In this document: piece by piece, positions 3-27,250 of the stretch | How positions within the stretch are numbered: position 1 is the first letter of the stretch | How the letters are laid out: each line of letters begins with the position of its first letter | Source of the DNA: Clostridia bacterium | GTDB lineage: Bacteria; Bacillota; Clostridia; Christensenellales; UBA1242 | Direction of reading: 5' to 3' | Assembly (NCBI GenBank): GCA_017467585.1 | Contig: JAFUSR010000004.1 | Coordinates: 77,918-141,917 of the forward strand | Length of the DNA stretch: 64,000 nt | The notes under the pieces: model-generated | What the model was told of the DNA's origin: nothing | Database searches by the model: none | Seen by the model: the letters and a program-made list of their open reading frames with translations, nothing else | Translations under genes and position numbers: made by a program

Positions 3-3000
3 ACACTTGGCACTGTTAGATTCAGCTATGGTTCAGGTGCAAGCGCTGTTTCTAACACAGTTTCAATGAGTGCAACCACAGGCACATGCACAGGCGACTA
101 TCTTGTTACAACCGCCAACAATCATGTTCCTGCAACCGATGGCGCAACACTCACACTTTCTTATGCAATCACAGCAAACACTTATTCAATTGCATATAAC
201 ACATGGAACGGCACAAGCGTTGCAACAAGCAGCCACACAGTTAACGTTCCTAAAAACTTAACCGCATACGACACAGTTTATGTAAGCATGTCAGCTGCTC
301 AAAAGACAGCAGTTGCTGGCTGGACATTTGTTGGTTGGGACGAGACTGCTCATGGCACCACAAGACTTAGTGCACGCACACTTCTTGCTGACAAGGCGCA
401 AGTTCAAAACAAGAGTTACACCCAAGGTGCAACAGTTAACCTCTACGCAACATACACACCAAACACCTACACAATTTCTTATGTAATCAACGGCGGAACA
501 TTTGGCACAAGCCGTCCAACACAATACACCGTTAGCGAAAGCGCTCAAAACCTTGCAACAGCACTCTCTGCTCCAACAAAAACAGGTTACACCTTTGCTA
601 GTTGGACAAGTTCACTATCTGGCGTAACCGTTAGTGGAACAACAGTTAGTGTTGCGGCTCTTGCAAACGGAAATGTTACACTTTCTGCCAACTGGACAGA
701 AAACACTTATAGCATCACATTTGCCGATGTTTACAACGCATTCACAGTTAAAGTGGCACGCTTTGATGGTTCAAACGCAACAGAATATACTGTTGATAGT
801 TCTCACCTCACAATTTCTGGAATTAGATATACAGACATTGTTGTTGTAGGAACAGAAAGCGTAAACAAGAGAGTGGATGGTTCAACTACAATTAATCCAG
901 CACTCACCAGTACAACAAACCCAACTAGAATTGGTTATGATTGGGGATTTGGAGATAATGGTGGAGGTAAACCAAATGTATTTGATATTTCAAATTGTGG
1001 CAATGCGTATAGATACATGGATAATGTATGGGATGGACCAAGAAGTGTTCAATTAACTGGATATAAAGCTTTCTCAATGCTTAACAGCACCAACGGCGCA
1101 ACCGTTACATTCACTCTTCAATGGACTCCTCGCACAGACACACCATATAAGATTTTGACAAAACTAGAGAAGGTAGACGCAACTGCGGCTTACGACGAAC
1201 TTGCGCTCATCACCTCAACTGGCACAACCGACACAGCAGTTGACTTCAACACAGTTGTTTCGCTCATCAACAGCACTTATGCAAGCGAGCTCACCGGCTT
1301 TAAGATAAGCACAACAAAAGCTCAGTTCGATGCGCAAAACTATCGCATTACAGCGGGAACTGCAACAACCGTTGTTGTTAACTTCATCCGCGAGACCTAC
1401 ACCGCAACAATCACCAACACATATCTCGAACTCGACGGAACCTATTCAACAGGAACAACTGGTGGCGAGGTAACGTCTCCTCAACAATATCGTTATGGCG
1501 AAGCCATGACAGGCCTTGTTGCAAGCACAACCGCAACCGGCTTCTACCTCGACAGAATTGAAGAGGGCTCAACTCAGTTCACAACAAGTTCAACAATGCC
1601 AGCACGCAATGTCAATTTGACCGCACGCTTTGGCAGAAACCAAGCAAAACTCACCGTTGCTAACATTTATCAAGCAATCAACGCTTCTGGCGAACTCAGC
1701 TGGACAGTTGGCAATGTTGGTGGAACAGGCAAGGGCGGCGGAGACTATGCTTATGGCACAGTCATTGCAGAAAAAGTTGCCGTTAACACAACAGCAACAG
1801 GCTTCACATTTGCTGGCTTCTACACATCAACAACAATCACCGACGCAAACAAACTCTCTGCCAGCGACACACTTTTGACAGATAGAACTGTTTATGCAGC
1901 CTTCACAAGAAACAATGTTACAATCACATTTGTTTCAACCGACAAGATTTCAAGCATCACCGTTAACGGAAACGCTGTTAACAACCTTTCATATACGCTC
2001 AAATATGAGCAGGCATATTCGCTTGTTATCACAACCGTTAGCGGCTACACCGCAACAATCAAGAACGCGGCAAACAACTTGCCAGCAGCAACAACCAGAG
2101 CGCTTGCAGGAAATGTGACAGAATACACAATTTCAACAGCTCTTGCAACTGGTGTTACTGCCGAAACAATCACAATCACAACAGCAGCGGCTGATGTTAA
2201 CTACACAGTTTATGTTGTTTCTCAAAACCTCAGCAACGAATATGTTGCAGATTCTGGCACAGTTCGTCAGGCAAAAGCTGACGCAACTGTTGCAATTTCT
2301 GGCCTTGCAACCACAAGGGCACACTATGTGTTCATTGGCCACAAAGACTCTCTCAGCGCAACCGCCGCTGGCCTTTCAAACGCAGCCAACATAACAATTA
2401 ATGGCAACGGAACAACAAAGGTATATCTATATTACAGACTATATGCTTATAGCATTGCCGTTAACGCAACCGGAACAGTTGGCGAAACCAGCCATTCAAT
2501 TTCTGGCACGCTCAGCAACAGCACAACAGCATATTATGGCGACACTCTTGACATAACAATTGTTGTTAAAACAGGCTACACCCTTGGTGCAGTAACTGTT
2601 AATGGCCAAAACGTTTCTGCTGGTGGCGCAGGCACAGTAAACTTTAGCGCCGAACTCACCGGAAACAAAGCTCCTGCAGCCGATGGCGACACTCTTGCAA
2701 TTGCTTATGCAATAACAGCCGACACATTCACCATTGCTTATGCTGCAAACAAACCAGCAACAGCCACAAACGACGTTACTGGCTCAACCGCAAGTCAAAC
2801 AGCAACCTACAATGCCGCTCTCACAAGCCGCGCAAACGGCTTCAGCCTCAAGGGTTGGTCATTCACTGGCTGGAACACCGCCGCAAATGGCAGTGGAACA
2901 GCAGTTGGCGCAAACAGCAGCATTGCCATTTCAACAATCAACAGTTGGTATGGCGAAACTGGCGTTGGCAAAAACGGCACAAAGACACTCTATGCTCAAT

Positions 3001-6000
3001 GGACAGCAAAGAAATATAATATTACTGTTTATGCATATGACAAAACAACCATTGTTGAAACATATTCAAAAGTTCTTGAATTTGACACAAGTTACGAGGG
3101 TGTTAAACTTATCAACAACCTTTCTAAATATGCTAGAGTAGGTTACACCTTAGTTAAGTTCTATACCCATGAATCAGGTGCTAGATCAAAAGAAATGATT
3201 GATGCAAATGGTTATGCAATACCAAATGCAGTAAACGGCAATGGAACAACAATCTTTAACGCAAATAGTGTGTTCATTGTTGAAACAGATGTTATTGTTG
3301 ATGCAACTTACACTGCAAACAGTTACACACTCACTCTCGACGGAAACGGCGGAACAGTTGGCAGCAACACAACCTCAACAAAGAGTGTTGTTTATGGTCA
3401 AACTTACACCGACCTTCCAACACCAACCCGCACAGGTTACACCTTCGGCGGCTGGTATTACGACGTAACCGGCTCAAAATATATCAACCTTGGCCGTGAA
3501 TATATGTACACCAACAAACTCAGTGTACATGCAATGGCTTACAGCGAAAATTGGGCAAATTATGGTCCGTATACTTATTCTCGCATGCTTTCATCAACGG
3601 CTAGTGGTGGTTTCTCATTGGGTGGTGAAGACTCAGCAGGACGAATAATTTTTGAAATTTGTGCAAATGGAGGGTATAAGGCTTTTGCCTACGATGTAAC
3701 CAGCTTATCTGCTGGCTGGCACACATTTGACCTTGTTTATACTGGCTCAGTTCTCTATGGCTATGTTGACGGAGTGCAGGTTGGTTCAAGAAATGTTGGT
3801 TCATACCCAATTGTTTACAACGCAACCAACTCGATTTTTGTTGGCGCGGAAGCTAGCACCAGCCCAACTTCACCAGAATCAGTCGCTGAAAATAGTGGTT
3901 TTGTTGGAAATGTTATCATTTCAAACACAGACACAAGAATTGCTCACAACAACAACACAATCACTGCGCCTGCACAAAATGCTACACTTTATGCAAGATG
4001 GACAGCCGACACTTACACCGTTGCATACAACAGCAACAAGCCAGCGCAAGCCTTCACTTCTGTTAGCGGAACAGCCGCTAACCAAACAGCAACCTACGAC
4101 GCAGCACTCACAGCACGTGGTGCGCTTAGCCTCACAGGCTTCACTTTCGCCGGCTGGAACACAAAAGCCGACGGCACAGGCTCTAACTACGCCGCAGGCG
4201 GCACAATAACAGCTGCAACAATCAACAGCTGGTATGCAGAGTCTGGCGTGGGCAAGGGCGGCACAAAGACACTCTATGCTAAGTGGACAGAAAACACTTA
4301 TAACATTACATTTGCGAGCGTATATAATGCGTTCACCGTTAAAGTTGCTCGTTATGATGGTTCAAACCCAACAGAATATACTGTTGATAGTTCTCACTTG
4401 ACAATTTCTGGAATTAGATTTACAGACATTGTGGTTACGGGAACTGCAAACGTAAGCAAGAGAATAGACAACTCAACCGCAATTAGCCCAGCACTCACAA
4501 CCACAACTGCTCCAAGTAGAACAGGCTATAGACTTGGTAATAAAGACAATGAAAATGTAAGGTATGAACATACAAACTATAATCCAGAAACGAGAAGGTG
4601 GACTTGGCAAACTGATGCAGAATGGACAGTTAATGCTGCCAACTCTAATACAGGATGCATGGCATTTGTTGGATTATGTGTAAATAATGGAGATACAACT
4701 ACATTAACAATTAAATGGGCTCCAATCACCTACAACGTTGTGTTCAACAAGAACGCAGCTAGCGTTGGCCACACCGACAGTCAAGTTTCTGGCACAATGG
4801 CTAACCAAACCCACACTTACGACGCAAGCCTTGCACTTTCTGCAAACACTTATGCGCTTTCTGGCTACACATTTGTTGGTTGGAACACAGCAGCTAACGG
4901 CACAGGCACACACTATGCCGACAAAGCTTCTGTGAAGAACTTGTCTTCAACCAAAAATGCAAACTTCAACCTTTACGCAGAGTGGCGCGCTAACTATTAT
5001 GCAATTTCTGTTGTTGCAAACGGCGGAACACTCACATTCGCTCATGGCACAAGCAGCACATATTCTGTTAGCACAACAGGCACACTCTATGCAAAATTCG
5101 ACAGCACAAACTTATATTACGCAACAACCAAGCCAAACTATGTTGGCGACGGAACAACCGTTAGCCAAGTTTCTGGCTATACCTCAGCTAAAACAGGTTA
5201 TAGCTTTGTAACTCTTGGCAACGAAACCTATTATGTTGCTGCTGCAAGCGGCACAATTACAAATGCAAGCGGCGCAAGCAAGGCTTACACCACAGCTGGC
5301 GCAAGCACATTTGAAGCAAATTGGTCAATCAACCAATATACACTTTCAATTGTTAACCGCTATCAAACAACAACCTACACAAGCGGCGCACTCACCTGGG
5401 CAACCGGCGAAACCGGTGGCCACGGAACAGGCGCAGGAAAATATAACTATCACACAAAACTTTCAACAGTCATCGGAAACGTTACCGAAACAGGCTTCAC
5501 ATTTGCCGGATTCTACACCACAACAACCATCACCGACGCAAACAAACTCTCAGAAGACGCTGTTCTCGAAGACGCCGACCTGACTATCTATGCTGCGTTC
5601 TATCGCAACAGCTATTCTATTAGCGTTTCTGGCCTTAACGCAGTAACCACAACCGGAACAAGCAGCACAAGCCTTGTTGCTGCTGGCGGCTCGGCAAACG
5701 GCGCTCCAAACGGCGCAAAAGTTTATTACGGCGACACAGTAACCTTCACAATTGCAAGCAAAGAGGGTTATACCTTTGCTAGTGCAACCGTTAATGGCGT
5801 GGCTCTTACCATGTCTGCAGTAAGCGGACAAACCCGCACCCACAGCGGAAGCTTTGTTGTTAGCGGAAACAAGATTCCTGCTTCGGGCAACACAATCACC
5901 TTGACATATGTTGTAAACGCAAACCCATATAAGGTTGCTTACAACACATGGAACGGAACAAAGGTTGCCGAAAGCGATCATGTTGTGAACGTTCCTAAGA

Positions 6001-9000: not shown

Positions 9001-12000
9001 CAAGCGGAACAAGCCGCCTTGGCGACATTGTTTACACAAATGGTCAAGCCTTTGGCAACAAAACAACAACTCAAGGCCAAGTTTATAAACTATACGCTCG
9101 CTACACCGCAGCATCATATTCAATCACCTATGCTCTAAATGGTGGAACTCATGGCGCAACACACCCAGCAAGCTACACCGTTAGTGAGTCTGCTCAAGAA
9201 CTCACACTCAGTGCTCCAAGCAGAACAGGTTACACCTTTGCTGGCTGGTCTAGCGACAAGACAGGCAGCGGCGTTCCTAACATTTCTGCAAGCGCAGGAA
9301 AGATTTCTATTGCCGCACTCACTTCTGGCAACTTGACACTCTCTGCCAACTGGACAGCGAAAACATATAGGTTATATTGGAACGCAAATGGTGGAACATA
9401 TAACAACACCGGCTGGGGCTCTCAATGGAAAGCAGAAAACGGAGTATATTACTTGGCCGTAACATACGACGTTGTTACAACCAGCTATTTGAGTCTTAGT
9501 AGTAGTAATAATGTAACAAGAACAGGTTACACTGGCACAGGCTGGTTCACTGCAGCAAGTGGCGGAACAAAAATTCACAATGGTGCAACCACAGATGGTT
9601 ATGTTGCAAACACCATATTATTCGATGCAAACAAGAAGTGGATTTATGACGGCAACTACACAATCTATGCTCAATGGACTGCTAACACCTATACAATCAC
9701 ACTTGACGTAAATGGTGGAAATGCTCTTTCATCAAACACAAAGAGTGTAACATATGGACAAACATATACTGACCTTCCAACCCCAACCCGCACAGGCTAC
9801 ACCTTTGGCGGCTGGTATTACGACGTTTCAGATGCAACCAAATATGTCAACATGGGTCGTGAATATATGTATACAAACAAGATTAGTATACATGCAATGG
9901 CTTATAGTGATAACTGGGCAAACTATGGCCCAACTTACACCGATTCAACAGTGGTATCATGTACAGAAACAGGTGGCTTCACTATTGGTGGTGGTGGAAG
10001 CGCAAAGGGGAGAGTAATATTCTCGGTTTATGCAAATGGTTCTTATAGAACTTATACATACAATGCAAGCAGTTTATCTGCTGGTTGGCATACCTTTGAC
10101 CTTGTTTACACTGGTTCTGTTGTTTATGCATATGTAGATGGAACACAAGTTGGAACAGTAAATGTTGGCACATACCCAATTGTTTATAACGCAACCAACT
10201 CAATCTTTGTTGGTGCGGAAACAAGTTCAAGTGCAACGGGTGTTGAATCAGGCTGTGCAAATTCAGGCTTTGTTGGAAATGTTATCATTTCAAACACAGA
10301 CACAAGAATTGCTCACAACAACAATGCAATCACTGCTCCTGCACAAAATGCAACACTCAAAGCTCGTTGGATACCAAACCCATACACCTTGACTCTCACT
10401 CAAGACGGAACTGGCGTTAAACCAAGCAAGATGAGCAGCACAATTTCTGCCGGCACTGCAAGCGTTAACCAAACTTATGACGCAGACTTTGTTAAACCAA
10501 GCACTCTTCCTAGCGCAGCAGGTTGGAGCTTTGCTGGTTACTACACCGACAAACTCGGCGCAGGCACAAAAGTTCTTAACGCCGACGGAACACGCAACAC
10601 AGCCGTTACAACCTACATTAACGCATCTAACAAGTGGGTTTATGCAAACAACCTCACACTCTACGCTCACTACACTCAAAACAGCTATGGCGTTACATTT
10701 GTTGGCAACTTCACTGGTTCAACCAGTGCAACATTGCCAAGTCCAAACCCAGCAAGCTTAACCTTTGACAACGTTGTCAGCGGAACCTACACCGCATCTG
10801 CCAAGGGCTACACCTTTGGTGGTTGGTACGCCGAAGCCGGTTGCACAAACCAAATCTTTGGCGCAAACGGAAAGGTTATTGCCGGAAAGACCGTTTCTGG
10901 CACAAAATATACCGGAGCAAACGGCGAGTGGGTTAAGGCATCGGCTACAAACCTTTACGCTAAGTGGACAGCCAACACAATCACCATAACTCTAAACAAC
11001 GGCAGCCTTGCTTATGCAACACCAAGCGCAAACAGCACAACAACTGCCACATTTGACCAAGCCAAGAGCGTAACTCCACCAACAGTCAGCCCAGCAGGCT
11101 ACACCTTTGGCGGATATTACCTCGAAAGTGGCTTGTCAACACAACTCTTCACCGCAGCTGGCGCACTTGTTAAAAACGTTAGCAAGAGTGGAGTTGCTTA
11201 CACATCTAACACCGACACAGTTAAGTGGATTTTCGACAACACCGACCACGCACTGACTGTTTATGCTAAGTGGACAGCAAATTCTTACACAATCACCTTC
11301 AACACCAACTACGAAACCTACGAGGTTGTTGGCGTAACCACCGCAAGTCAAACAGTCAATTCAAAAGCCGTAACCTTTGGCACAACAGCCATAACCTTTG
11401 CAACAGCTCCTGTTGCAACCTGCGACGCAGTTGGTTATGACTTCCTTGGCTATTACACTCAAAAGACTCAAGGAATCAAGCTGTTCAACACCGACGGCTC
11501 AATGGTTACAACTGGCGACGCAGCCGCATATTTCGCAGCAAGCGGCAACAACGTTTATTACAAACACGCTGGCAACATAACCGTTTACGCTCATTGGAAC
11601 GTTAAGAGCTTTACTCTTACATACGCTTCTAACAAGCCAGCAAACGCTTCTGGCGGAATTGTTACCGTTGGCACAGCAAGTCAAACAATTTCGTTTGTCG
11701 ACACATTCACTGTGGCAAACGCAACCAACATGTTCACACTCACCGGTTGGAGACTAACCGGTTGGACAGCGAGCGACGGAAAGACCTATACATTTGGTCA
11801 ATCTGTTCAATATCTCGACCACAACTTAACCCTGACTGCTGTTTGGGCAGCCAACACCTACACAGTTGTGTTCAACTCAAACAAACCAAGCGACGCAAGC
11901 TCAGACGTTACCGGAACAATGGCAAACGAGAGCTTTACTTACGACGCTGGCGGAAAGGCGCTCACCGCAAACGCATTTGCCATCACAGGCTGGACGTTTG

Positions 12001-15000
12001 GTGGCTGGGCAACAACCGCAACCGGAACAAAGGTTTATAATGACAAACAAAGCGTTTCAAACCTCACAAGCACTCATGGAGCAACAATCAACCTCTATGC
12101 AATTTGGAGCGCAAATTCATACACAGTTAGCTTCGCAGCAAACGGCGGAACAATCACATGGCAAGACTCAACAAAAACCACAATAGCGGCAAAATATGAC
12201 GTCGTTTACCAAATTTCGACAATAGTTTCGTCAATTGCGCGCACTGGTTACACCTTCACCGGTTGGAAGATAACCGCCGGCCTAAACGCAGAAACAGCCA
12301 AGAGCGGAACAAGCGCAAGCGCAGTAACAACCGCAATTGCCGCAAGCACATTGCTTCCAACCGCAAGCTACTTCAAGAATATCACTCCAACAAATAGCAC
12401 AGCGGTTACATTCACCGCTCAGTGGAGCGCAAACTCTTACACAGTTAACTTCGCAGCAAACGGCGGAACAATTTCGTGGAAGACAAGTGGCGTAACCACA
12501 ATTTCGGCAAAATACGACACCGAATATCAAATTTCGGCATATGTTTCTGGAATTTCACGCACAGGCTACACCTTCCGCGGATTCAAGGTTACTGCAGGAC
12601 TCAACACCTCAACCGCTAAATATGGCACGGCATCTGGCAGCGTAACCACAGCAATTGCTGCAACAACCTTGCTTTCAACTTCACACTACATCAAAAATAT
12701 CAACCCAACAAATGGCGCAAGCGTAACCCTCACTGCAGAGTGGAGCGCAAACTATTACGCAATCACAATTGCCCTCAACAGCGGCAGCAAAATCGACTTT
12801 ACTTATGGCTCAAGCACCTACAGCGCAACCGCAAACGGCGTGAGCGACAGAATTTACGCAAAATATAACTCAACCGAGCTATACTTCTCGTCTGCTTCTC
12901 CAGTTTACGACGGCGACGGCAAGGCCGTAACCAAAGTAACCAAAATACTCGCAACACGCACGGGCTACACCAACACTGGCGCAAGCCTTGGCTCAATTGG
13001 TGTTAACATTTCAACCGGTGCTCTTGCTAGCGCCTACGCAACTGCCGGAACAAGCACACTCACACCAGCGTGGGCAGCAAAATATTATGCAATAACAGTG
13101 GACGCAAACGGCGGCTCATTGACCTTCTCTTATGGAACAAGCTCAACCTACACAGTAACCACCGCAAACGGCACAATTTATGCGCAATATAACAGCAACA
13201 AACTTTATTACGCCGCAGCAAACCCAGTTTATGCTGGCTATGCATCAAGCGGAAACGCAGTTGCTTACGAAATTTCGGGCATCACAAACTCAAGAACTGG
13301 CTACACCTTGACAAGCCTTAGCGGCACTGGCGCAACAGTTGACGTAACCACTGGCGCAGCCGCAAAAGTTCTTCACTCGGCTTACATAACCGATGGGGCA
13401 GGCAGCCTCACCGCCGGCTGGACAGCAAATGTCATCACCGTTACTCTCAACAACCAAAGTGCAACAAGTGCTGGCACAACAACTGTTTATTATCGTTATC
13501 AAACAGCCGAGTATTACACAACATACTCAAATGGCACACTTTCTAACAAGATAACCTCAATCACAAAGCCAACACGCAATGGCTATGCCTTTGGTGGTTA
13601 CTTTAAGTCAACTGGCGGCAGCGGAACACAATATATCGCAGCCGATGGCGGCTTCATGAACAACATGTATAGTTCAGAAAGCGCAAACCTCACACTTTAC
13701 GCTAAGTGGACACCATATAAGTTGACAATTCGTTATCACCTTAATGGTGGAACAGCAGTTACAGGAAATGATGGTGGATTCTCCAATAGCGACCCATCAG
13801 CGAGCGATGTTTATAACTATGGCGCATCTATGTATGACTATGGTTTAACTGATGCAAATTCTAGCAGAGTAACTCGCACTGGTTACACAATTAAATCTGG
13901 TGCAAACATGTATAACACCAAAGCTAATGGCAGTGGCGTTAACATTTCTTGCGACATTCAATACACAATCGGTGGAGCAAGCAACGACATTTTGGCACTC
14001 ACCGGAACAAACATGAACACCGGCAACGCAACTCTCGACATCTATGCTCAATGGACCGCAAACACTTACACTGTTACGGTTGATGCAAATGGCGGAACAA
14101 TTCCGGCAACCAGTGGCTGGACAGTGGCTTCTGGCAGCGCAACCGCAACCAAGAGCGTAACTTACGACGCAGCCTATGGCACTCTGCCTTCACCAACCCG
14201 CACAGGTTACACCTTCCTCGGCTGGCGCGGTAAGAACTTATTGAATATCAACGACATGTTGAATAGTGCTCTTGTTTCTAATGGGGACGGCACTTACACA
14301 ATCACAAAAGGTTCTGAACGAATTTCAGGCTCAACAGCTTATGATATACCAGGTGAAACACATATCGTTGTTTCATTGGTAATTGATGCACAGAATAATT
14401 CGCTTAGTACATATTGGCTTGATGCTGAAGGAAAAGACTATTATCCAGGTTTGTCTTGGACAATTCCTAGTGGCAAGACCATGAAAACTTTCAGAATATA
14501 TAAAGAAGCTTCATTTGCAGCAGGCTCATACACAACATTCCACAACTTGATGCTTGAAATTGGCGACACAGCAACTGCCTATGAACGTTATTACGTTCTT
14601 GGCACAGACCCTGTTCACCAGGCTAAAAACCACACACTCACTGCGGCATGGGCAGCAAACAAATATAGCGTTGTGTTTAACGCCAACAAGCCAGCACAAG
14701 CCTTCACTTCTGTTAGTGGAACAATGGCTAACCAAAGCTTCACTTACAACGAAGCCGCAAAGGCACTCACCGCAAATGCATATAGCCTCACAGGCTTCAC
14801 ATTTGCCGGTTGGAACACAGCAGCCAACGGCAGCGGCACAGCATATGCCGACAAGGCAAGCGTCCGCAACCTGACCGCCAGCGCAAACGGAACAGTTAAC
14901 CTCTACGCTCAGTGGACCGAAAACACCTATAACATAACCTTCGCCAGCGTTTATAACGAATTTAAGGTTGTTGTTGCAAGATATGACGGAACAAGTCCAA

Positions 15001-18000
15001 CAACCTACACAATCAAATCTGGCAGCTTAACAATAAGCGGCATTAGATATACCGATTTAATTCTAACAGGTGGAGGAACAATATTTAAGAGAGTAGATAA
15101 TTCAACAACAATTTCTCCTGCTGTTTCTGGAGCAACCGCTCCAAGTAGAACTGGTTATGACTGGGGCAAGTTGAATGGCAATAACATTAACGTTAAATGG
15201 GCACTATCTAACACCAATGGCGGTTATCGTGGTGGTGGTGGAAACTGGGGCAGCAACGGAACAGGCGTAAATACAACAAGTGACGTATGCTTTGTTGGTC
15301 TTAACTATACCAACGATGCAACCGTAACAATGACTCCACAATGGACAGCCAAATCTTACACCCTCACATTCAACGCTAACAAGTCTAGCTATTCAAGCAT
15401 GAGCGGAACTCCAACTCAAACCGCAACAAGCGCAACAGTAACCTACGACGCAACCACTTCTCTCACAGGCGCATATAAGGCCAGCGTAACCGGTTGGACC
15501 TTCGGCGGATATTACACCGCAGCCACCGGCGGAACACTTGTGTTCGACAGCAATGGCTATGTTCAAGCATCAGTTTCTGGCTTCACCAACGCAAGCAAGG
15601 CATGGATTGGCACCGAAAACAAAACCGTCTATGCCCACTACACCGCCAACACTTACACAATCACACTTGCTCCAAACGGCGGACAAGTAACAGGCCTTTC
15701 AGCAACAAGCGGTTGCAGCGTTGCAACAGCTAACAGCAAACTCACACTGACCTACGACACAGAGGCCAAGTTTGCCATAACCATCGTTCGTGTTGGTTAT
15801 GCCTTCACCGGCTGGACACAAAGCGGAACAGCAGGCACATTCACAAGTGGAACATATAACTTAGGTAACGACAAACACTCATATGTTGGAACAACAACCG
15901 CTAAGAATTTGGCTGCAAGCGGAAACATTACCATAACCGCTGGCTGGTCAATCCGCAGCTATACACTCACACTCAACGCAAACGGCGGAACAGTTGGTGG
16001 AAACACATCAACAACCAAGAGCGTAACTTATGGTCAAACCTACACCGACCTTCCAACACCAAGCCGCACAGGTTACACATTCGGTGGCTGGTATTACGAC
16101 ATCAGCGGAGCAGCCGCAAATGTTGTGAACTATGGTAGAATTTATAACTACGAAGACAAACTCAGTGTTCACATGATAGTTTACGGAAGCGGAGCAGGTA
16201 GATTTATTTCTAGCACCGAAGGTGGCGGCTGGCAACTTACACCAGGCGGAGTTCAATATGCCTTCGATAAGGGAGTAGGCTATAAAACAACAACCTTCAA
16301 CAATTTCCCAACAACATCTTGGTTCACCCTTGACATGATTTTTGATGGAACAAACATCAAGTATTATCTCAATGGAGTTCTTAAAGCAACATCTGAAAAC
16401 TTCACCAGCGGAAAGATTGGCTATCAAGCAACCAACTCATTGTTTGTTGGTGGCGAGCCAGGCACAAGCGCAACTGTTCTTGACTCAAGTTCTGGCTATT
16501 GGAGTGGCTACATTGGAAACCTTGTGATTTCTAACAACACAACACTTATAACAAGCGCAAACAACTCAATCACAGCGCCTGCGCAAGACGCAACACTCAA
16601 AGCACGTTGGACTCCAAACACCTACACACTTTCATTCAATGTTAATGCTCCAAGTCACAAACTTCCAAACACTTCTGCAACACAAACCGCAGCAAGCAAA
16701 ACAGTAACTTACGACTCAACAAGCAACTTAACAACTGCTTACACCGCAAGCCTGACAGGCTTCACATTCGGCGGATATTACACCGCTGCAACTGGCGGAA
16801 CACAAGTGTTCACCGCAGCCGGCGCCGTAAACGCATCAGTTTCTGGCTTCACCAACGCAAGCAAGCAATGGATTGGCACAGAAAACAAGACAGTTTATGC
16901 CCACTGGACAGAAAACACTTATAACATCACCTTCGCAAATGTTTATAACGATTTCACAGTGAAAGTGGCTCGTTACGACGGCACCGGCGCAACCGAATAC
17001 ACCATCAACTCAAGCAACAAGACAATCAGCGGAATTAGATTCACTGATATTGTGGTTATTGGTAATCTTGTGGCAGTAAGCACACGAGTAGATAACACAA
17101 CTGCAATTAGCCCTGCAATTTCTAGCACGACTAACCCAAGCAGAACAGGTTACACATGGGGTATACCAGATAGTCAAAATTATAATTGCCCTGTATATGT
17201 TTCTGGAGCAACTGCAACAGGATATAAGATTGGCGCTTATGGTGAAAACAACTGGATGACAACTGCTGACTGGGGAACTGGTTATAACACAGTTGCCACA
17301 GGCTTTAGTGGTCTTAACCATAACAATTCTTCAACAGTTACATTAACTATTCTATGGACCCCAATCTCTTACACCCTCACCTTTAGCGGCAATGCGCCAT
17401 ATTCTGGTGCAACCGTAACTCAAACCCAAGCAAGCAGAACCGTAACCTACGACTCAAACAACAACCTCACCACAAACTATGTTGCAAGCTCAGCGGGTTA
17501 CACCTTCTTGGGTTACACAACAACTCAAAATGGCGACACATTGTTCACCAATTCTTCTGGTGCAGTTCAAAAATCTGTTAGCGGCTTCACAGACGCCAGC
17601 GGAAACTGGATTGGCACAGCGAGCAAAACAGTCTACGCTAAGTGGCAAGCCAACTCATATACTCTCACAATCAAGTTTATTGGCGCCGGCTTTGACGGCT
17701 CAACCAAGCCAACACTCGGCTTCTCGGCAACCTATGGCGGAACAAGCGCCGTTGCCGGAAACGTTACCGCTCCAAACGGGCAGGTAACTGTTGCCTCTGG
17801 CACAGCACTCACCGCATCAACAGCCACAACAACCGGAAAATTCAGCGCAACAACCTTGCAATATAACGGTTCGGCTGGCAGTGCAGACGGAACAAGCACA
17901 ATCACCGTAACAAAAACTCACGCATTCAGCGGAAACGTTGTTGTTACCATTTCTCTTGCGGGCTATTATGTTAAAATTGGCGGTGTTCCAACGGTTAGCG

Positions 18001-21000
18001 ACAGCGTTGGTTCAACTTCGTACACCTGGAACGCACAAGCAAACGCTTCAGTCAACGTTTATGCTTACAAGCGTTACACAATTTCTTACGCTGCAAACAG
18101 CGCAGTTGCTTCTAGTGGCTCGTTTGACCCAACATACAAAATCTATGGCACAGCCGCAACCCTCAAAACCAACAACTGGACGGCAACAGGCTACAGCCCA
18201 GCTGGCTGGACAATCGAAGACGGCGTTTTGGTTGATTCAACCGACCCAAGATTCCGTGCAAACGGCTATTCTTACACCACAAACGCAGACTTAGAACTTT
18301 ATGCAAACTGGAGCAACAAAACGTTCACTCTTCTGTTTATGCAAGACAACGACGATCAAAACAACGGCATTAAGCCAACAGGCATGAGTGGCGCAATAAC
18401 CAAGGGCACAACCAGCATGACGGTTACCTTTGCTGGCGCAGTTGGCGCAATCGCCAGCCTTCCAAGCGTAACGGGCTGGACATTCCAAGGCTATTACACG
18501 GGAACTCTCGGCGCAGGTGCAAAAGTGTTTGACGCAAACGGCACACCAGTGACAAACGCAGGCCAAGGTCAATATATCACCTCAGACGGAGACTGGAATT
18601 ATGCGCTTCCAGAAGGCGTAAACCAACTCAAACTCTACGCATATTATAAGGCAAATACATATTTTGCAGAATATGAAGATTTGTATAAGAACTTTTCACT
18701 TGGTTCATATCAAATAAATGGAGGCGGTTCATGGGCAACTAGCACAACAGGTGGAGTAAAAACCATGACCTTTACTGCAGCTGGTGCTTCTACAAATCAA
18801 TGGAGTGGTCCAGTTATATCAGGCTTTGGTTCACTTCTTACCGTTGGACAAAAATATAGACTTTCGTTCACTGCAAAAACAAGCAAGAATATGACAATCA
18901 CTAATGCTGGTTTCGAAGGCGGACAAGTTAGTGCTTATGGTTCTTGGTTCTCATTAAGTACCACAACCACAAATCAAGATTTCCACGTAGACTTCACTTA
19001 TACGGCTAGCAATAATGGATCTGCAAACTTGGTATTCTATTGCAACAGTTGGGTGGCTGGTGATACACTTACTATCACGAACATTAGACTTTCTAAGATT
19101 GTTGAATATGATTCAGTTTATGGCGACCTGTTCACCCCAAGCAAAACGGGTTACACCTTCCTCGGCTGGCAAAACATTCCGCTCGACTATCAACCAGTTG
19201 AGTACATTCAATCAACCGGCACACAATGGATTGACACCGGATTTGTTGACACAGTAAACACAAAAGTTGAAATCGACATGCAATTCACAGACCTCACTGT
19301 TCAACAACGCTTGTTTGGTCATGGCTATGATGAAGACACCGGAACTAACGTTTCATTTGAATCTTACATAAATGGTTCAGGACAGTTTGCTTGGGCAACT
19401 AAAGATGGTATTGGACAATGGCAAGCATCAACCATGGCAGCCGACACAAACAGACACTTGTTTATGTTGACTAACAATATTTATGCAATAACCACAAATG
19501 GCACAACAAATTACTTAGGTGCAAGTGGTACTCATGTTACAAGAGCAAACACAGACAAGTTGACATTATTGCATAGAATTGGATCAGGTTCAAATCATAA
19601 TGCAAAAGCTAAACTTTATGGCTGCAAGATATTCGACAACGGAACAATTGTTCGTGACTTCGTTCCTTGCTATCGCAAGAGCGATGGCGTTGTCGGATTA
19701 TACGACACCGTTAACGGCACATTCTACACCAACGCCGGCACTGGCACATTTGCTAAGGGCGCAGACAAGTATGTTACCAAAGACACAATTGTTTCGTCTC
19801 TTGCCAACCACACACTCTATGCCCGCTGGCAAATTAACACTTACACACTCACAAACAACGAGGGCTATTGGGTAACTTGCCACGACACAGACGCAACTCT
19901 TCGCGTTAAAACAAACGACAGTTCAAGTGCAACAGTTACAACCTATAACTCAAGCAATGTTGCTCAAGCAACTCAAACAGGCGCAGATGTTTCAGTGACA
20001 CTCAAGAAGGGCGAATACTTTAAGATTACTCACACATATAGCACAACAACAACGGTAACTTGGACAATCACAAGAACAAACACCAACAGAAACTATATGG
20101 TTTGGGCTTATGACGGCGGCTCTGCTGCGGACAATGCCCACAGCGGAACATGGACTCCAACAGCCAATGCAACTCGTGAGCACTACATTCGTGAATATGT
20201 TAACTTCACTGCTGTTGCAAAAACAGGAATTCAATCTGCAACAAGAAATGTCGCTTATGCCCCAATGGATGTAACCTGGAGTGGTTGGCTTCCAACCTTC
20301 ATTGCAACCGCAAAAACTGGCTATACCTTTAAAGGTTGGTACACAACTAGCGATGGTTCTGGCACAGCAGTAAGCACAAGCACAACTTATGCACTTACAA
20401 GAACTCCTGCAAACGACTTGACACTCTATGCCTTTGCAACTGCAAACACCTACACAGTGGCTTACCACAAGTGGAGCGACGACAGCAGCGCAACCGCTGT
20501 TGCAACCAGCACCCACACTTACGACACTGCTAAGGCGCTGACCACCTATGCCGCAATCAACGCGCTCAACAATAGCGCAAACGTGCTTAAAGTCACTGGC
20601 TACACCTTTGCCGGTTGGGCAGAGGTTGCTCACACAAGCACAAAGACTGGCACAGTTAAATATTCTGACGGTCAATCTGTCAACAATCTGATGGCCAGCG
20701 GAACAAAACACCTGTTCGCAACCTACACAGCCGACACATTCACAATTGCATTCAACGGCAACAAGCCAAGCGGCGCATCTAACAATGTTGGCGGCTCAAC
20801 AGCTAGCGTAACAGCAACTTACGACAGCACTCGCAGCTTAACCGCAAACGGCTTCACCCTCACAGGTTGGACATTTGCTGGCTGGGCAACAAGCGCTAGC
20901 GGCAGCGCAACCTATGGCAACAGCGCAACGCTCACAGCCGCTCAAGTTAACAGTCACTACGACTCAGTTGGCAAGGGAGGAACACTTACACTCTACGCTA

Positions 21001-24000
21001 AGTGGACTCAAAACACTTATTCTGTTAAATTCAACAGCAACTACCCAACTTGGGCAGTTGGAACAAGTGGTTCAATGGCTAACCAAAGCTTTACTTACGA
21101 CGCCGCAGCAAAAGCCCTCACTGCAAACGCATTTAAAGCTGCAAACGCAACCTTCACTGGTTGGGCAACATCTGCTAGTGGCAACGTTGTTTACTCTGAC
21201 AAACAAGCAGTTCAAAACCTTGCAACTAGCGGAACATTTAACCTCTATGCGCAATGGGCAGCAGCAACCTATAAGGTTGAATATAGCATGGGCAGCTGGA
21301 CTCGCCAAAACACTGGCACTCTTGCAACAGGCTATACCTATAGCTCAACAAACAACCAAGAACTTAATGTTGGCTATGCAGTTAGAGCAGGCTACACCTT
21401 TACTGGTTGGTCAATCGCTTGGAGCGACGCCGCAAACAACACCGGCGCAACTGGCGCAATTTCTAGCACATACGCTTCTGTTTCGGGAACTGCTGGCTCT
21501 AACAACACACTTGTTGTCAACAAGCAGACCTACGGAAACATTGTGCTTTCTCCAACCGGAAACGCAAACAGCTACACCGTTGTGTTCAACGGCAACAAGC
21601 CAAGCACCGCTTCTAACAACGTTGGCGGCACAATGGCTAACCAAAGCTTTACTTACGACCAGTCTCAGGCTCTCACAGCAAATGCATTTAGCCTCACTGG
21701 TTGGACATTCACTGGCTGGGCAAGAAGCGCTGCTGGTGCTAAAGAATTCAACAACGAGCAAACTGTTTCTAATCTCACAACAACAGCAAGCGGAACTGTT
21801 AACCTTTATGCTGTTTGGTCAGAAAACACTTACATCGTTGAGTTCTACACATGGAACGGCACAAAGGTTGCTCACCAAGGCTATTCTTATGAAGAAAGTA
21901 AGAACCTCGCAACCTACGCTGAAATCAACAACAAAACAACATCTGTTGTAACCATGGACGTAACCACAAGCAACGTTCTTGTTGTAACTGGCTACACCTT
22001 TGCTGGTTGGGCAACAACTGCTCACACAAGCGCAAAGACAGGCACGGTTGTTCACACCGACGGCAAGTCTGTTTCTAAGCTCACAGCAACCAACGGCGGA
22101 ACAATTAAGCTTTATGCTACTTACACCGCCGACACTTACACAATTGCATTCAACGGCAACAAGCCAAGCGGCGCATCTAGCAACGTTGGCGGCTCAACAG
22201 CAAGCGTAACTGCAACTTACGACAGCACTCGCAGCTTAACCGCAAACGGCTTCAGCCTCACCGGTTGGAGATTTGCTGGCTGGGCAACAAGCGCTAGTGG
22301 CAGCGTTGTTTATGCAAACGGCGCAACACTCACAGCCGCTCAAGTTAACAGCCACTATACTTCAGTGGGCAAGGGCGGAACACTTACTCTCTACGCTCGT
22401 TGGAACGCAAACACTTACACCGTTGCCTTCTACACATGGAACGGCACAAAGGTTGCTTCACAAGGCTTTGTTTACGACACAGCTAAAAACCTTGCAACCT
22501 TTAATCAAATCAACAGCAAGGATACATCTGTTGTAACCATGGAATCTGGAATTGGCAATAACTCACTTGTTGTTAATGGCTGGAAGTTTACTGGTTGGGC
22601 AACAACCGCTCACAACTCAACAAAGACAGGCACAGTTGTTCACACAAACGGCAAATCTGTTTCAACATTAACTTCAACCCACGGAGCAACAGTTAACCTC
22701 TATGCAACATACACACCAAACACTTACACAATCGTAAACGAGATTGTTGCTTCTGGTCTTGCTGCTAGCGACTTTGCCGTTAGCGGAATGAAACCAATTC
22801 TCTCTAGCGGTCAACTTAACAAAGTTACCGACGCTTCTAACGTTGATTATCGCAATATCAACAACCTTGCAGTAACCTTAAAGCACAACAACGGCAGCGG
22901 AAACATGGCAACAACCACAAACAGAACCGTTAAAACAGGTTACAAAGTGGGCTATGACCTTGCTTCAGCTTCTAGCAACCTTTATTACGACGGCAACAAC
23001 TCACTTGCTAAACTTGTTATGGTTTACACCGTTGCAGGAACAAGCAATCTTGCATGTGTTGAAATTTCTAGCAACAACCTTCCAGATGTTAATGCAGCCG
23101 ATGGCAGCAACATTTACTTCATTGTTTGCGCAACACTCAAACAATACACACTTTCAATGAACATCAAAGACAAAGCTGGCTCATCGAATGCTCCTACTGA
23201 TTCTTATAGCTACACACTGAAATCTTCAACATATTCAGATCTCTACACCAGAAACGCAGGTTCTAGCGTAACAAAAAGAACTCTTGCCGCAAACAACAAG
23301 TTCTATGCTGGCGAAGCTGTTGAAGTTACTCTTTCTGCAGCAACAAGCAGTGGCTATTACATTTATAACCAGGTTATCGAAAGAACCGGCTCTAGCGACA
23401 CAAACCCAACAACAAGAGCAACTGGTCCTGCCGCTTCTGCAAGCTTCACAACAAATTCAAGAACAACCAACTTCGAAATTTATGCTCAAATTGCTGTTGC
23501 AACACTTACAATCAATGTGACCGATTCAGACAATTCAAACGCATATAGCAAAGAATATGGTTGGAACGACACTGTTGCCTTCACCGGAACATGGAAGAAG
23601 GGTTCAACAAACGACACAACATTTGGAACATACTTTGCTGCTCGTGACAGCCAAGCTAAAATTGTTGCGGCACTCACCGGAACAATGATTATTGGCAAAG
23701 TTAGCGGAAGCAAGAACTATGCAACTGCCTACGCAACCGCTCGTGCTGCTTCTAACAACTTGTGGACAAGCTTGAACAACCTTCCAAGTGGAAAGGTTAG
23801 CGAAATCTTCAGCTTTATTGGAACAAAGGTTAATGGTGGAACGGCTTACACAGCCGCCAACGGCACAATTGTTATGAACCTAACTGCAACCTTCTATCAC
23901 AAGATTTCTCTTGCAATCACTTATAACGTTCAAAGAGATGTCGTAAGCAAAGATAACGTTGCAAACATCTATACACAAACACTTTATTCAACAACCGAAA

Positions 24001-26588
24001 CAACCGCAAACAACTATCAAGGCGAAACATTTAACTATGCTGCAACAACAGCAGAACTTATCAACAACTCTGCAATTAATTCAGTTGTTAGCACATCTGT
24101 TTCTAGTGGTGCTTCAATTACTAAGGTTGATGCAAAAACCTTGAAGATTGTTTACACAACTTCAACAGCTAATGTAACCAGCGGTTCTGCAACGGTTAAA
24201 AACGACCCAATTTATTCAACAACAACGCTTGAACACTTAATCAGTGTAGATACTCAGGGTGCTGCAGAAGTTCACTTATACTTGCCAATCAAGAACGCAA
24301 GCGGAAAGATTCTCTATGTTCTTGACTTTTCAAACCAAGAGACTGGCGTTGACTATAACAGAACAGACTTTGCAACAAACACAAGCTCTTCAAATGGCAG
24401 CCTGGCTCTTTATAGCAGACAACAGAGCCACAAGACAACTCTTCGCTCAATCACAATTTTGGGCAAATCAATCACCAATTCAACCTATAGTTGCACAATT
24501 AATTCTGTTGTGTCTAAGATAGGTAATAAGAACGGTGGTAGTGGACTTACAAACTTCAGCTTTATCACTTATTGGGATAAAGACTATGCAGTTTCTGTCA
24601 ACTCATATTATTACTTCTATAATTTGGCATCTGTTAAACTTGGTGGCTCAGACATTGTTGGAGCAAGCAACAAGGGCATTTCAACCAACAAGCACAGATG
24701 GGGCAGTGGAACATCTGCTGTTGCATACACAACCAACAACGAATCTTCTAATGTCACAACCAACATCTATAACGCGGGAACTTACACCAACGGCAGTCTG
24801 ATGAACAAGACTCTTGCTGTAACAACCTCGTTCTCTACCTACGGAACAATTAAATATTCTGGTTATAACAGAACAACACAAACAACCGGTGTTGTTGCAA
24901 CAATCGAATATATTTCTAATGGTTCTAGCGGATTCTACAACAACGGAACATTCAACCTTTCTGCAATTTCAGATGACCTTTCTAGTCAAATGATCTTAAC
25001 TGGCTACACCAACTCTGCAACCGATGGACTTGGAGTTTGGAACTTGAACACAAACTACACAGTTTGGAGAATTCTCGCAGCAGTAATTGCAATCCAAGGC
25101 GACTATGACGTTGCAAAAGCAGATGCACAAATTCAACTCCGCGCTAACTACGAATTGTCTTCAGTATGGCTTTCATACTCAAATGGCAATGGTAAAGGCT
25201 TTGGTGAGATGGATACTTACGCATCTTCAAGCTCAAGCATAACAGTTAAGAGAAGCGCAACCGATTTGCAAGACGCAATCGACTTCTATCTTGCAAACCT
25301 TAACAGCTCAGATTGGGGCAAGGTTGCAACCCTCACAATCTATAACAGTGGTGTTGCTCTCTCTGGTGGCTTCACATTGTCTAAAGCTCTAGTTATGACA
25401 AGCGGAATGCAACTCACAATCACAACCAGACACGGCAAGGTTGTTGGCACAGGCACAGGCAAAACAACAACAATCGATGGCGGAACTCCAGCAAGAGAAA
25501 CAATCAAAATTGCTGGCTCAATCAGCATGACAGGTGCTGCTGGATTCTTCGATGTTAAGAGTGGCGCAACTCTTGCATTCACCAACATCGACTTTGATGT
25601 TGCATCATTTGCCGCAGGAACAGCAACCAAGATGTTCAACATTGGCGGAACTCTGAACATCAACAAGTCAACCAGCGGAACCGACGCAAACATCTCTAAC
25701 GACGGTGCAACTGGAACATCAACAACAGCCTACAGAACAAAAGTTACTGGTGCAACACCAGGCGGCTCAGGAATTGTTCTGTTCTATGCAAGTGGCGATG
25801 CCGCAAAGATTAACGCAGTTAACATCAACATTTCAAATCTCAAACCTGGCAATACATCTAGCACAGATGTTCTCAGAAGCATATTCGTTATCGATGGTGG
25901 TGCTCACACATTCAAGAATATCAGAATCGCTGGCGCAAGCTATGTTGGCCCAGCAATTGCAGTCAACAACACCTCAACCGGAACCGACAAAACTGTTACA
26001 TTCGAAAATGTTGTGTTTGCACCTAGTGGATACACGGAGCTCTCGTATATCGAGAGCACCGGCACCCAGTATATTAATACCGGCATAACTTCAATACCTG
26101 CTCCGTTTTCTATAGAAATCACATATCTGAAATCTAACACTAATACAAACGATCAATGTTTGTTTGGAAGCAGGCAACTTGGTAAATTTGTGAACATATA
26201 TGGTAATTATTATGAAACAGCTTTTGGTAATACTGCCTCAAATACAGCTAATGGAGATAATAACACACATACTATTTTATGTGACAGTACATCTGGGTTC
26301 TATAAGGATGGGACAAAACTAGCTACATCTTACAGCACATTAGCTAGTCGCAGTTCAACACAACCAGGGCTAATTTGCGCATTCACCGAAGAGGAATCGT
26401 TTTCGCCAAAATGGTTTTTCGTAGGAAAGATATACTATGTGAGAATAATTGTAGATGGGAAAATGTTCCACGACTTTATTCCTATGAAGCGCAATAGCGA
26501 TGGCGCAATTGGCCTCTACGACGCCGTAACCGGCACATTCTACACCAACGCTGGCACGGGCACATTCATCGCCGGCCCCGAAGTGTAA
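3..26588 (+). CDS. Giant surface-type repeat protein, 5-prime partial (more than 8,861 codons in the window). Mostly Listeria-Bacteroides (InlB B-repeat / Flg_new-type) repeats with nested accessory domains.
   Basis: One stop-free frame runs from window position 3 to TAA at 26586-26588. The ORF-track Met at 66 is internal: the same frame reads ...[22 protein letters not shown]... upstream with no stop. Many tens of roughly 65-75 aa units carry the signature Y-x-[IV]-x-[FY]-x-x-N-G-G ... P-[ST]-R-x-G-Y-T-F-x-G-W ... L-Y-A-x-W. The C-terminus (...[18 protein letters not shown]) has no LPXTG or hydrophobic anchor. Confidence 0.9.
   Translation, partial: [8861 protein letters not shown]
696..1130 (+). 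repeat. Intragenic module M, copy 1 ([50 protein letters not shown]...)
   Basis: One of four copies of a roughly 145-aa module. The first roughly 85 aa are conserved and the last roughly 55-60 aa are unrelated between copies. Confidence 0.8.
3315..4010 (+). other. LamG/concanavalin-like domain nested inside a Listeria-Bacteroides repeat, copy 1
   Basis: The host repeat opens [47 protein letters not shown] and closes [15 protein letters not shown] about 190 aa later. The insert (...[16 protein letters not shown]...[25 protein letters not shown]...[10 protein letters not shown]...[10 protein letters not shown]) has the pattern of LamG-type lectin-fold domains. The fold is assigned by pattern recognition only. 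Confidence 0.6.
4287..4725 (+). repeat. Intragenic module M, copy 2
   Basis: [52 protein letters not shown]..., followed by a copy-specific segment. Confidence 0.8.
9681..10375 (+). other. LamG/concanavalin-like nested domain, copy 2
   Basis: Paralogous to 3315-4010. It shares a 56-nt perfect match (3900-3955 = 10269-10324). The host repeat opens [45 protein letters not shown] and closes [14 protein letters not shown]. Confidence 0.6.
14227..14625 (+). other. Roughly 130-aa beta-sandwich-like insert nested in a repeat ([36 protein letters not shown]...[19 protein letters not shown]...HTLTAAW)
   Basis: It interrupts a host repeat at the same place as the LamG-like inserts, between GYTFxGW and the closing xLxAxW strand. 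I do not recognise the family and the fold is a guess. Confidence 0.4.
14916..15350 (+). repeat. Intragenic module M, copy 3
   Basis: [52 protein letters not shown]..., followed by a copy-specific segment. Confidence 0.8.
15950..16620 (+). other. LamG/concanavalin-like nested domain, copy 3 (divergent)
   Basis: The host repeat is [47 protein letters not shown] ... [15 protein letters not shown]. The insert is ...[26 protein letters not shown]...[25 protein letters not shown]...[10 protein letters not shown]...[10 protein letters not shown]. Confidence 0.55.
16908..17360 (+). repeat. Intragenic module M, copy 4
   Basis: [52 protein letters not shown]..., followed by a copy-specific segment. 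Confidence 0.8.
18655..19100 (+). other. CBM / galactose-binding-like domain candidate
   Basis: The segment [88 protein letters not shown]...[25 protein letters not shown] resembles CBM4/9-type sugar-binding modules. This is a pattern-level call only. Confidence 0.4.
19185..19760 (+). other. 'YIxSTGTQ ... [19 protein letters not shown]' domain, internal copy A, nested in a repeat
   Basis: ...[32 protein letters not shown]...[34 protein letters not shown]...HTLYARW. It is flanked by the two halves of a host Listeria-Bacteroides repeat. Confidence 0.7.
22740..26020 (+). other. Non-repetitive roughly 1,100-aa region of the giant protein, including a probable right-handed beta-helix-like stretch near 25400-26000
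   Basis: No GYTFxGW/LYAxW periodicity is visible after about 22740. The segment ...[23 protein letters not shown]...[31 protein letters not shown]...GGTLNINKS...[10 protein letters not shown]...[10 protein letters not shown]...VTFENVVF has the short alternating-strand look of parallel beta-helices. Confidence 0.45.
26025..26585 (+). other. 'YIxSTGTQ ... [10 protein letters not shown]' domain, terminal copy B
   Basis: [21 protein letters not shown]...[37 protein letters not shown]. It shares both terminal motifs with copy A, but the core is diverged. Confidence 0.7.
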
Positions 26589-26590
26589 AA

Positions 26591-26630
26591 CTTTAACAAA
26601 AAAGCATAACCAACAACGGCTATGCTTTTT
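26591..26630 (+). repeat. Direct repeat DR1 (terminator-hairpin copy) on the left flank of the GIY-YIG cassette
   Basis: ctttaacaaaaaagcataaccaacaacggctatgcttttt, compared with DR2 ctttaacaaaaaggcataaccaaatcagttatgccttttt at 27251-27290. The first 23 nt match 22/23, the loops differ, and the stems are preserved. Confidence 0.75.
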
Positions 26631-26633
26631 TTT
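26598..26633 (+). terminator. Rho-independent terminator of the giant gene
   Basis: The sequence is aaaaAGCATAaCCaacaacGGcTATGCTtttttttt, 10 nt after the stop codon. It has a stem with one internal mismatch and a T8 run. Confidence 0.7.
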
Positions 26634-26635
26634 GC

Positions 26636-26680
26636 GTCATGCTAACCGAAGTGCCAGCGGCACGGAGTGGAGAGCATCTC
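26636..26680 (+). repeat. GC-rich GTCAT...ATCTC unit, copy A
   Basis: GTCATGCTAACCGAAGTGCCAGCGGCACGGAGTGGAGAGCATCTC. The closing stem is ATGCT/AGCAT and there is an inner hairpin GTGCC-agc-GGCAC. Confidence 0.7.
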
Positions 26681-26725
26681 ATCAATCCCTTTACTTTTCT
26701 TTTGTTTATGTGCTAAACTTTTTGT

Positions 26726-27010: not shown

Positions 27011-27031
27011 TGTGTTAGAGGTTTCAGCCCC

Positions 27032-27079
27032 GTCATTCTAAGCGAAGCGACCGAACGGGAGCGTAGTCGAGAGGATCTC
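27032..27079 (+). repeat. GC-rich GTCAT...ATCTC unit, copy B
   Basis: GTCATTCTAAGCGAAGCGACCGAACGGGAGCGTAGTCGAGAGGATCTC. The closing stem is ATTCT/AGGAT, with one G-T wobble. Confidence 0.7.
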
Positions 27080-27094
27080 GTGTGTAAAGCGGCT

Positions 27095-27141: not shown

Positions 27142-27162
27142 AATTTTTATCCTCTGCCCGCC

Positions 27163-27209: not shown

Positions 27210-27220
27210 GGACAGAGGAT

Positions 27221-27240: not shown

Positions 27241-27250
27241 ATTCACCAAC

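Follow-up and report, generated by a model that had tools for sequence, protein, structure and literature searches.

Can a reading frame that enters a 64-kb stretch of DNA already open, and stays open for a further 8,861 codons, belong to a real gene, and if so, what would hold so large a product at the cell? This question is raised by the 64,000 nucleotides analyzed here (hereafter the window), which correspond to positions 77,918 to 141,917 of the forward strand of contig JAFUSR010000004.1, from the Clostridia bacterium assembly GCA_017467585.1. We consider it probable, though well short of certain, that the window holds the distal (C-terminal) part of one intact chromosomal gene encoding a predicted fibrillar surface protein of about 18,700 residues, and that this protein is exported, anchored at its N-terminus and able to bind glycans.

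Frame +3 was free of stop codons from window position 3 to 26585 (8,861 codons) and closed by a TAA at 26586-26588, as described in the original prediction. With stops expected in 5.2% of codons from base composition, a run of this length would arise by chance with a probability of about 1e-205. The earliest in-frame ATG, at position 66, had been taken as internal to a larger protein, and this was confirmed by a public contig (ENA ERZ28654714 scaffold_13, 443,582 bp), which contains the same gene in full, at about 358,822-414,861, with a called product of 18,679 residues. This contig was 100% identical to window positions 17505-27143 (the only stretch of the giant gene compared); over positions 27025-39761 the identity was 99.99%, leaving aside a 149-bp tandem unit of which the contig has one copy more ahead of leuS. 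What the window contains is therefore the final 47% of a gene of 56 kb (3-26588, plus strand, as for all features of the giant gene given below) whose start lies about 29.45 kb upstream of window position 1. The visible part corresponds to the C-terminal 8,861 amino acids (aa), numbered here from the window edge, and the remaining 9,818 aa, on the N-terminal side, are encoded upstream of the window. A hairpin resembling an intrinsic terminator, followed by a U8 run (26598-26633), was located 10 nt after the stop codon; it was missed by a consensus terminator scan, spotted by eye and confirmed by folding (-13.2 kcal/mol, z=-3.3).

The visible product was dominated by seven residues (T 15.8, A 11.4, S 9.8, G 9.6, N 8.1, V 6.9 and Y 6.9%, together 68.5%) and was poor in charged ones (D, E, K and R together 11.3%), in agreement with the composition first proposed. 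The same composition had been thought to deplete the other frames of stops, which did not hold: the five alternative frames displayed 2.7 to 7.4 stops per 100 codons, within the range found for the off-frames of leuS, rpoB and fusA. The long shadow open reading frames (ORFs) are thus a by-product of gene length. Codon preferences of the giant gene agreed with those of the neighboring housekeeping genes.

A syntenic orthologue allowed selection on the gene to be estimated. A 24-kb contig from another sample (L005) displayed the same gene order as the window (giant gene, leuS, spoU, gerAC, gerAB, gerAA) and encoded a leucyl-tRNA synthetase (LeuRS) 91.6% identical to that of the window. Its giant frame was open over 16.5 kb except for one TAA and was collinear with aa 2760-8672 of the window product, at 52 to 72% identity. 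Over about 5,000 aligned codons, the ratio of nonsynonymous to synonymous divergence (dN/dS) was 0.20 to 0.29 at a synonymous divergence (dS) of 1.1 to 1.3, compared to a dN/dS of 0.056 and a dS of 0.99 for leuS, and the more than 100 aligned blocks were separated by in-frame gaps. The giant gene is protein-coding and under purifying selection, and its protein sequence diverges about six times faster than that of LeuRS.

The internal repeats of the gene were too diverged to have misled the assembly easily. The longest exact DNA repeat inside the visible gene was 56 bp and paralogous modules were at most 85% identical at the DNA level, making repeat collapse unlikely and allowing short reads to place the repeats unambiguously. 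Because of this divergence, no tandem array of repeat units was detected in the gene by Tandem Repeats Finder.

Most of the visible protein was organized as a body of Listeria-Bacteroides repeats interspersed with other modules. Fifteen stretches passed the cut-off (27 bits) of the Pfam family Flg_new (PF09479), with scores of 242 and 148 bits, and the NCBIfam model TIGR02543 matched at 74 and 45 bits (cut-off 20.95); PF18998 was also matched. These multiple copies above the curated cut-offs place the giant among the Listeria-Bacteroides (Flg_new PF09479/TIGR02543, InlB B-repeat) proteins, as an hmmscan had been expected to reveal. A hidden Markov model iterated on the visible protein recovered at least 35 repeats between aa 58 and 7537 (window 174-22613). 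The boundary motif LYAxW-xNxYxI occurred 46 times, the last at aa 7566, with a spacing of mostly 85 to 110 aa, the longer intervals coinciding with inserted domains of other types; this period replaces the unit of about 70 aa initially proposed. The description of the protein as such repeats grouped into super-repeats was right as to their presence and overstated as to their extent, since recognizable B-repeats covered about one third of the residues, the remainder consisting of other modules and of a 1,300-aa non-repeat C-terminus. Super-repeats did recur along the gene as had been described, in the form of old, diverged copies (45 to 70% aa identity). A further unit, referred to here as module A, belonged to no Pfam family and was present in four copies, the first at 666-1127 (WTENTYNITFAsVYNaFtVKVARYDG...) and the others at 4257-4727, 14913-15377 and 16905-17387, 50 to 58% identical to each other; relatives of module A occurred in giant ORFs of two other metagenomes. 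Monzon and Bateman (bioRxiv 10.1101/2021.12.07.471604) count Flg_new among the stalk domains of fibrillar adhesins, and the visible protein displayed the rod-like stalk of repeated domains by which these authors recognize such adhesins.

Putative ligand-binding modules, with lectin-type folds assigned by profile match and model, were of two kinds, LamG_3 inserts and concanavalin A (ConA)-like domains. The first LamG_3 (ConA-like) jelly roll (3471-3932) was nested in a B-repeat after the motif GYTFGGW and matched PF13385 at E=2.9e-8 (34.4 bits, cut-off 27.6). Two further inserts of this type were assigned by paralogy to it, one at 9837-10298 (60 to 70% aa identity; DNA 75% identical over 717 bp) and one at 16107-16568 (about 45% aa identity). 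LamG domains had been anticipated from the sequence together with carbohydrate-binding module (CBM) families; only the former were recovered, no CBM family exceeding any threshold in the visible protein in Pfam or PDB sequence searches. A beta-rich module at aa 6215-6365 (18645-19097), with no Pfam match, weakly resembled the CBM4 of CenC (PDB 1gu3/1ulo, E=0.23), which we regard as a lead only. The other unassigned segments gave nothing significant in Pfam at E up to 1, in PHROGs or in PDB sequence searches.

The second kind comprised two ConA-like domains of 180 to 190 aa, one forming the extreme C-terminus (26046-26585, 180 aa) and one internal (19203-19766), nested in a B-repeat after GYTFLGW and 31% identical to the terminal copy (E=1e-21). 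Both shared the motifs YIxSTGTQxIxTG and GLYDxVxGTFYTNAGTGTF. The domain had 329 homologues at E <=1e-3 (down to 2.4e-28), with conserved motifs in their alignment (A2), and these were mostly proteins of 200 to 315 aa devoid of any Pfam assignment; no PHROG match was obtained for the domain. An AlphaFold2 model of the terminal copy, built from 83 sequences, was all-beta (predicted local distance difference test, pLDDT, 85.9) and a Foldseek search of the PDB returned, with modest scores, 4dqa (a putative carbohydrate-binding protein), LamG, pentraxin and CBM40 folds. A closer match was a Siphoviridae protein in BFVD (A0A8S5P150, E=4.7e-12, template modeling (TM) score 0.81). By the signature YIESTGTQYIDTG...GxYDxVxxxFYxNxGxGxF combined with a beta-sandwich fold, these two domains, and only these two within the giant, belong to a phage-tail-associated ConA-like family. 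The LamG_3 insert could not be joined to this family, the hhalign comparison between them being not significant.

Stand-alone homologues of the ConA-like domain were located at the end of phage tail modules in all three contigs inspected. One (P0051) adjoined Phage_tail_C, Prophage_tail, Sipho_tail and tape-measure genes, another (P0098) followed Dit_N and Phage_tail_C and preceded holin and endolysin genes, and the third (P0012) came after a collagen-like fiber gene. The giant's domains resembled these stand-alone siphophage proteins and A0A8S5P150 by homology and fold, but differed in context: the stand-alone forms are proteins of 200 to 315 aa in phage tail clusters, while the giant's domain is fused into a chromosomal gene among housekeeping genes. 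Viewed apart from the giant, ConA-like proteins occupied the last position of siphophage tail modules in the three gut metagenome loci (L086 8001-8681, L088 8001-8657 and L090 8001-8603), with Phage_tail_C (PF24243) genes adjoining in two of the three and a collagen-like fiber gene preceding in the other. The 200-315-aa family, lacking both a Pfam and a PHROG model, therefore includes candidates for receptor-binding or fiber-tip proteins.

Neither ConA-like copy was present in the orthologue L005, which displayed an ordinary B-repeat at the internal site and ended just before the start of the terminal copy. After the two lineages diverged, these domains were thus acquired or lost whole.

Between the repeat body and the terminal domain, a non-repeat region of about 1,100 residues (aa 7570-8681, window 22710-26045) was lineage-specific: neither Pfam nor PHROGs nor the PDB sequences contained a match to it, and among 1.84 billion representative proteins a single homologue was found, the orthologue P0001 (62% identity). 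With two sequences in the alignment, AlphaFold2 gave no usable model of the final 1,200 aa (pLDDT 34).

The visible part of the protein offered no obvious means of attachment. No LPxT[GAN] motif was found anywhere in the visible 8,861 aa, which end in ...GTGTFIAGPEV; the maximum 19-residue Kyte-Doolittle hydropathy was 1.51, leaving no membrane-like segment; and SLH, choline-binding and GW domains were absent from its Pfam matches. The original prediction, which had recognized no LPXTG signal, hydrophobic tail, SLH-type or choline-binding anchor at the visible C-terminus, was thus supported by motif, hydropathy and Pfam scans. Within the visible part, the protein accordingly lacked the features of sortase-anchored LPXTG surface proteins, those of internalins (leucine-rich repeats (LRR), GW modules), those of cellulosomal scaffoldins (no cohesin or dockerin match in Pfam) and those of the Omnitrophota-type giants (transmembrane regions, SecA DEAD helicase).

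The missing C-terminal anchor is not anomalous, since homologues and known fibrillar adhesins often lack one as well. In a crude scan of 117 large Flg_new homologues, 115 started with Met and at least 66 displayed a signal-like N-terminus, against 11 with a hydrophobic C-terminal tail and none with an LPXTG-like signal, and anchors were detected in only about half of the fibrillar adhesins surveyed by Monzon and Bateman (10.1101/2021.12.07.471604). The window itself contained, just after tuf, a gene (50526-51950) for a protein of about 470 aa with six Flg_new repeats (E=7.6e-69), a signal peptide and a lipobox (…GMAFSGC). By analogy, this small lipoprotein provides a same-genome precedent for lipoprotein anchoring of Flg_new repeats.

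By the reading we favor, the giant would be exported unfolded through Sec, directed by an N-terminal signal lying outside the window, and would fold outside the cell into a beads-on-a-string fiber of several hundred nanometers. It would be held at or near its N-terminus, for instance by a lipobox or a signal anchor such as that of the small Flg_new lipoprotein, which would place the orphan region and the lectin domain at the far tip of the fiber. The many lectin-like modules distributed along it, as modeled, might then allow multivalent binding to glycans of plant fiber, mucus or other microbial cells.

Several points weigh against this reading. The start codon lies outside the window, together with the first 9,818 residues and whatever signal or anchor these may carry. 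The lectin assignment of the modeled terminal domain was made by fold similarity with modest scores (best PDB match E=3e-4, TM score 0.62). The 1,100-aa orphan region, which has no assignable fold, could carry a different activity. Each of the two stop-containing relatives is interrupted by a single in-frame stop, so that such genes may often be inactive, and the agreeing public contigs may come from the same reads.

The alternative that survives best, though we hold it unlikely, keeps the export of the giant and dispenses with the N-terminal anchor: the C-terminal ConA-like domain would bind the wall polysaccharide of the producer, or the protein would be released as a component of a matrix or coat. 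It would account for the lack of a covalent or membrane anchor in the visible 8,861 aa, and the position of the stand-alone family members, in the place that phage receptor-binding proteins occupy (next to Phage_tail_C, Sipho_tail and Dit genes, before holin and endolysin), points in the same direction. Receptor-binding proteins of phages bind bacterial wall glycans. Some other giant Clostridia proteins without membrane anchors are predicted as extracellular by West-Roberts et al. (10.1101/2023.11.21.568195). Against this alternative stands the orthologue, which lacks both ConA-like copies yet keeps the rest of the protein; the second copy lies inside a repeat within the protein, a position more fitting for ligand binding than for anchoring; and the location of the N-terminus outside the window leaves room for an anchor there.

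A bolder proposal, which we regard as somewhat less likely still, is that the two ConA-like jelly rolls were captured from siphophage receptor-binding proteins and confer specificity for bacterial wall glycans, the fiber being an inter-bacterial tether or anchored to the wall by its C-terminus, and the 1,100-aa region a new distal functional head. If so, a tether of 18,700 residues would serve co-aggregation or epibiotic attachment in the gut; alternatively, the domain would be a previously unrecognized, non-covalent C-terminal wall anchor of phage origin.

It appears improbable that the giant has an enzymatic or toxic role, as a scaffold or a delivery device comparable to a scaffoldin, a polymorphic toxin or an Omnitrophota-like wall degrader. 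A catalytic domain could hide in the orphan 1,100 aa, in one of several stretches of 200 to 700 aa without a family, or in the N-terminal half, but no cohesin, dockerin, glycoside hydrolase, peptidase, toxin, SecA or membrane-segment match was obtained in the visible 8,861 aa, and the extreme C-terminus was modeled as a lectin-like fold rather than as a toxin domain. Least probable of all, and very much so, is that the long frame arose in assembly, from chimeric or collapsed repeats, or that it is a decaying, unexpressed pseudogene: the sequence is metagenome-assembled, the relatives L005 and L002 each contain one in-frame stop and the two contigs compared may share one sample, but the absence of long or near-identical repeats, the 8,861 codons free of stops, a low dN/dS at an unsaturated dS comparable to that of leuS with all indels in frame, the Pfam domains found along the whole frame and the resemblance of the relatives' stops to single nonsense changes all argue against it.

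The stops themselves were isolated. In L005, the TAA (9944-9946) lay inside the CBM-like module, and in L002 a single TGA (5696-5698) occupied the conserved Trp position of the motif GYTFTGW, one step from TGG. Both have the look of nonsense point mutations or consensus errors, for which so long a gene is a very large target. Recoding was considered and rejected for these relatives, on the grounds that each frame displayed a single stop among thousands of codons and that the TGA fell on a Trp position one step from TGG.

Relatives of the giant gene were few. Two other metagenome contigs carried distant ones, with a module A 41 to 43% identical and open frames of 3,807 and 5,393 codons that continued past either end of the fetched stretch and contained 13 and 17 Flg_new stretches, respectively. 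A scan of the GTDB r232 representative contigs with module A yielded no match, which indicates that the gene is absent from these representatives. None of the 80 loci fetched by a leuS-based genome scan displayed a giant ORF ending upstream of leuS, so that the locus is lineage-specific. The protein homologue searches listed matches up to about 1.75 times the query length, and the giant itself was not among them. The closest LeuRS among 185,579 GTDB species representatives was 69% identical, and the nearest sources were uncultured Clostridiales, 'Christensenella' and Clostridia metagenome-assembled genomes from human and rabbit gut. NCBI lists identical LeuRS, EF-G, RpoB and GIY-YIG proteins (among them MBQ8468399.1 and MBQ8468398.1), encoded on a 721-kb contig, under the name 'MAG: Clostridia bacterium', and the naming (sample label XIEF21, accession series) suggests that the genome probably originates from a ruminant gut.

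The neighbors of the giant gene were chromosomal genes of housekeeping and sporulation, including leuS, spoU, gerAC/AB/AA, a P-type ATPase gene, rpsF-ssb-rpsR, dnaB, alaS, rpsG, fusA, tuf and rpoB. Just downstream, leuS (27356-29761) was encoded identically on several public contigs. The interval between both genes contained a segment of about 660 bp (26588-27273; L001 9521-9788) with a 94-aa ORF of the GIY-YIG nuclease family (26726-27010), flanked on both sides by copies of a 26-nt direct repeat (92% identical) in which a terminator hairpin is included. Only 178 bp separated the giant gene from leuS in L005, with no GIY-YIG ORF, and the segment thus looks like a small insertion. The 149-bp unit mentioned above (window 27025-27143) had one copy in the window and two in the ENA contig, which is otherwise identical. 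A strong terminator-like hairpin (-15.1 kcal/mol, z=-7) was found within 27150-27355, about 60 nt before the leuS start; Rfam detected no RNA family in the 64-kb window and no T-box upstream of leuS.

Three further observations concern more distant genes of the window. The alanyl-tRNA synthetase ORF (40136-42091, 651 aa) encoded the catalytic core and the SAD domain without the C-terminal part, and it overlapped the end of dnaB by about 110 nt, so that the true alaS start is probably further downstream. The 701-aa protein encoded downstream of alaS (42145-44250) combined a membrane segment at its N-terminus with a region of beta-helix-like repeats of the DUF4097 'toastrack' type. Two tandem paralogous genes (55306-57105 and 57150-58916) encoded predicted lipoproteins (signal peptide with lipobox ALVGC), acidic and rich in Q and E, with no Pfam match.

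The giant does not define a new category, since Flg_new proteins of giant size have been reported from gut Clostridia before and an undetected anchor is common in the family. Predicted proteins of 10,000 to 30,000 aa with Listeria-Bacteroides repeats were described in Clostridia of mammalian gut metagenomes and were suggested to bind surface glycoproteins (West-Roberts et al. 2023, bioRxiv 10.1101/2023.11.21.568195). The present protein resembles them in organism class, animal-gut habitat (here a probable ruminant gut), size range, dominant repeat and proposed glycan binding; compared to their brief description, the phage-tail-type ConA-like domains, the nesting in B-repeats, the orphan C-terminus and the syntenic orthologue are specific to this locus. 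With the Flg_new fibrillar adhesins, it shares a long beta-repeat stalk, biased composition, rapid evolution, putative binding modules and an anchor that often goes undetected, but it is about ten times longer than typical ones and its putative binding modules are nested along the stalk rather than gathered in one terminal head. The B-repeat (PF09479) is also the fold unit shared with Listeria InlB, which contains a single copy, whereas the giant contains at least 35 in half its length and its visible part has no LRR, inter-repeat or GW module. The Apilactobacillus kunkeei Giant1-5 (PMC12863079) and Ebh/SasG-type giants are likewise large, repeat-built extracellular proteins of Bacillota thought to act in aggregation or adhesion; by their description, they are set apart by other repeat families and by lengths of 3,000 to 10,000 aa.

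At about 18,700 residues, encoded by 56 kb or several per cent of a small Clostridia genome, the protein ranks among the largest predicted in Bacillota, and it would represent a heavy investment for an uncultured gut anaerobe. Comparison with the syntenic orthologue displayed how such a gene evolves, through purifying selection, fast divergence and the gain or loss of whole domains. Through the ConA-like domains, a putative giant adhesin of cellular origin is connected with a family known elsewhere from phage tails, and this link may provide testable candidates for the ligands of the fiber.

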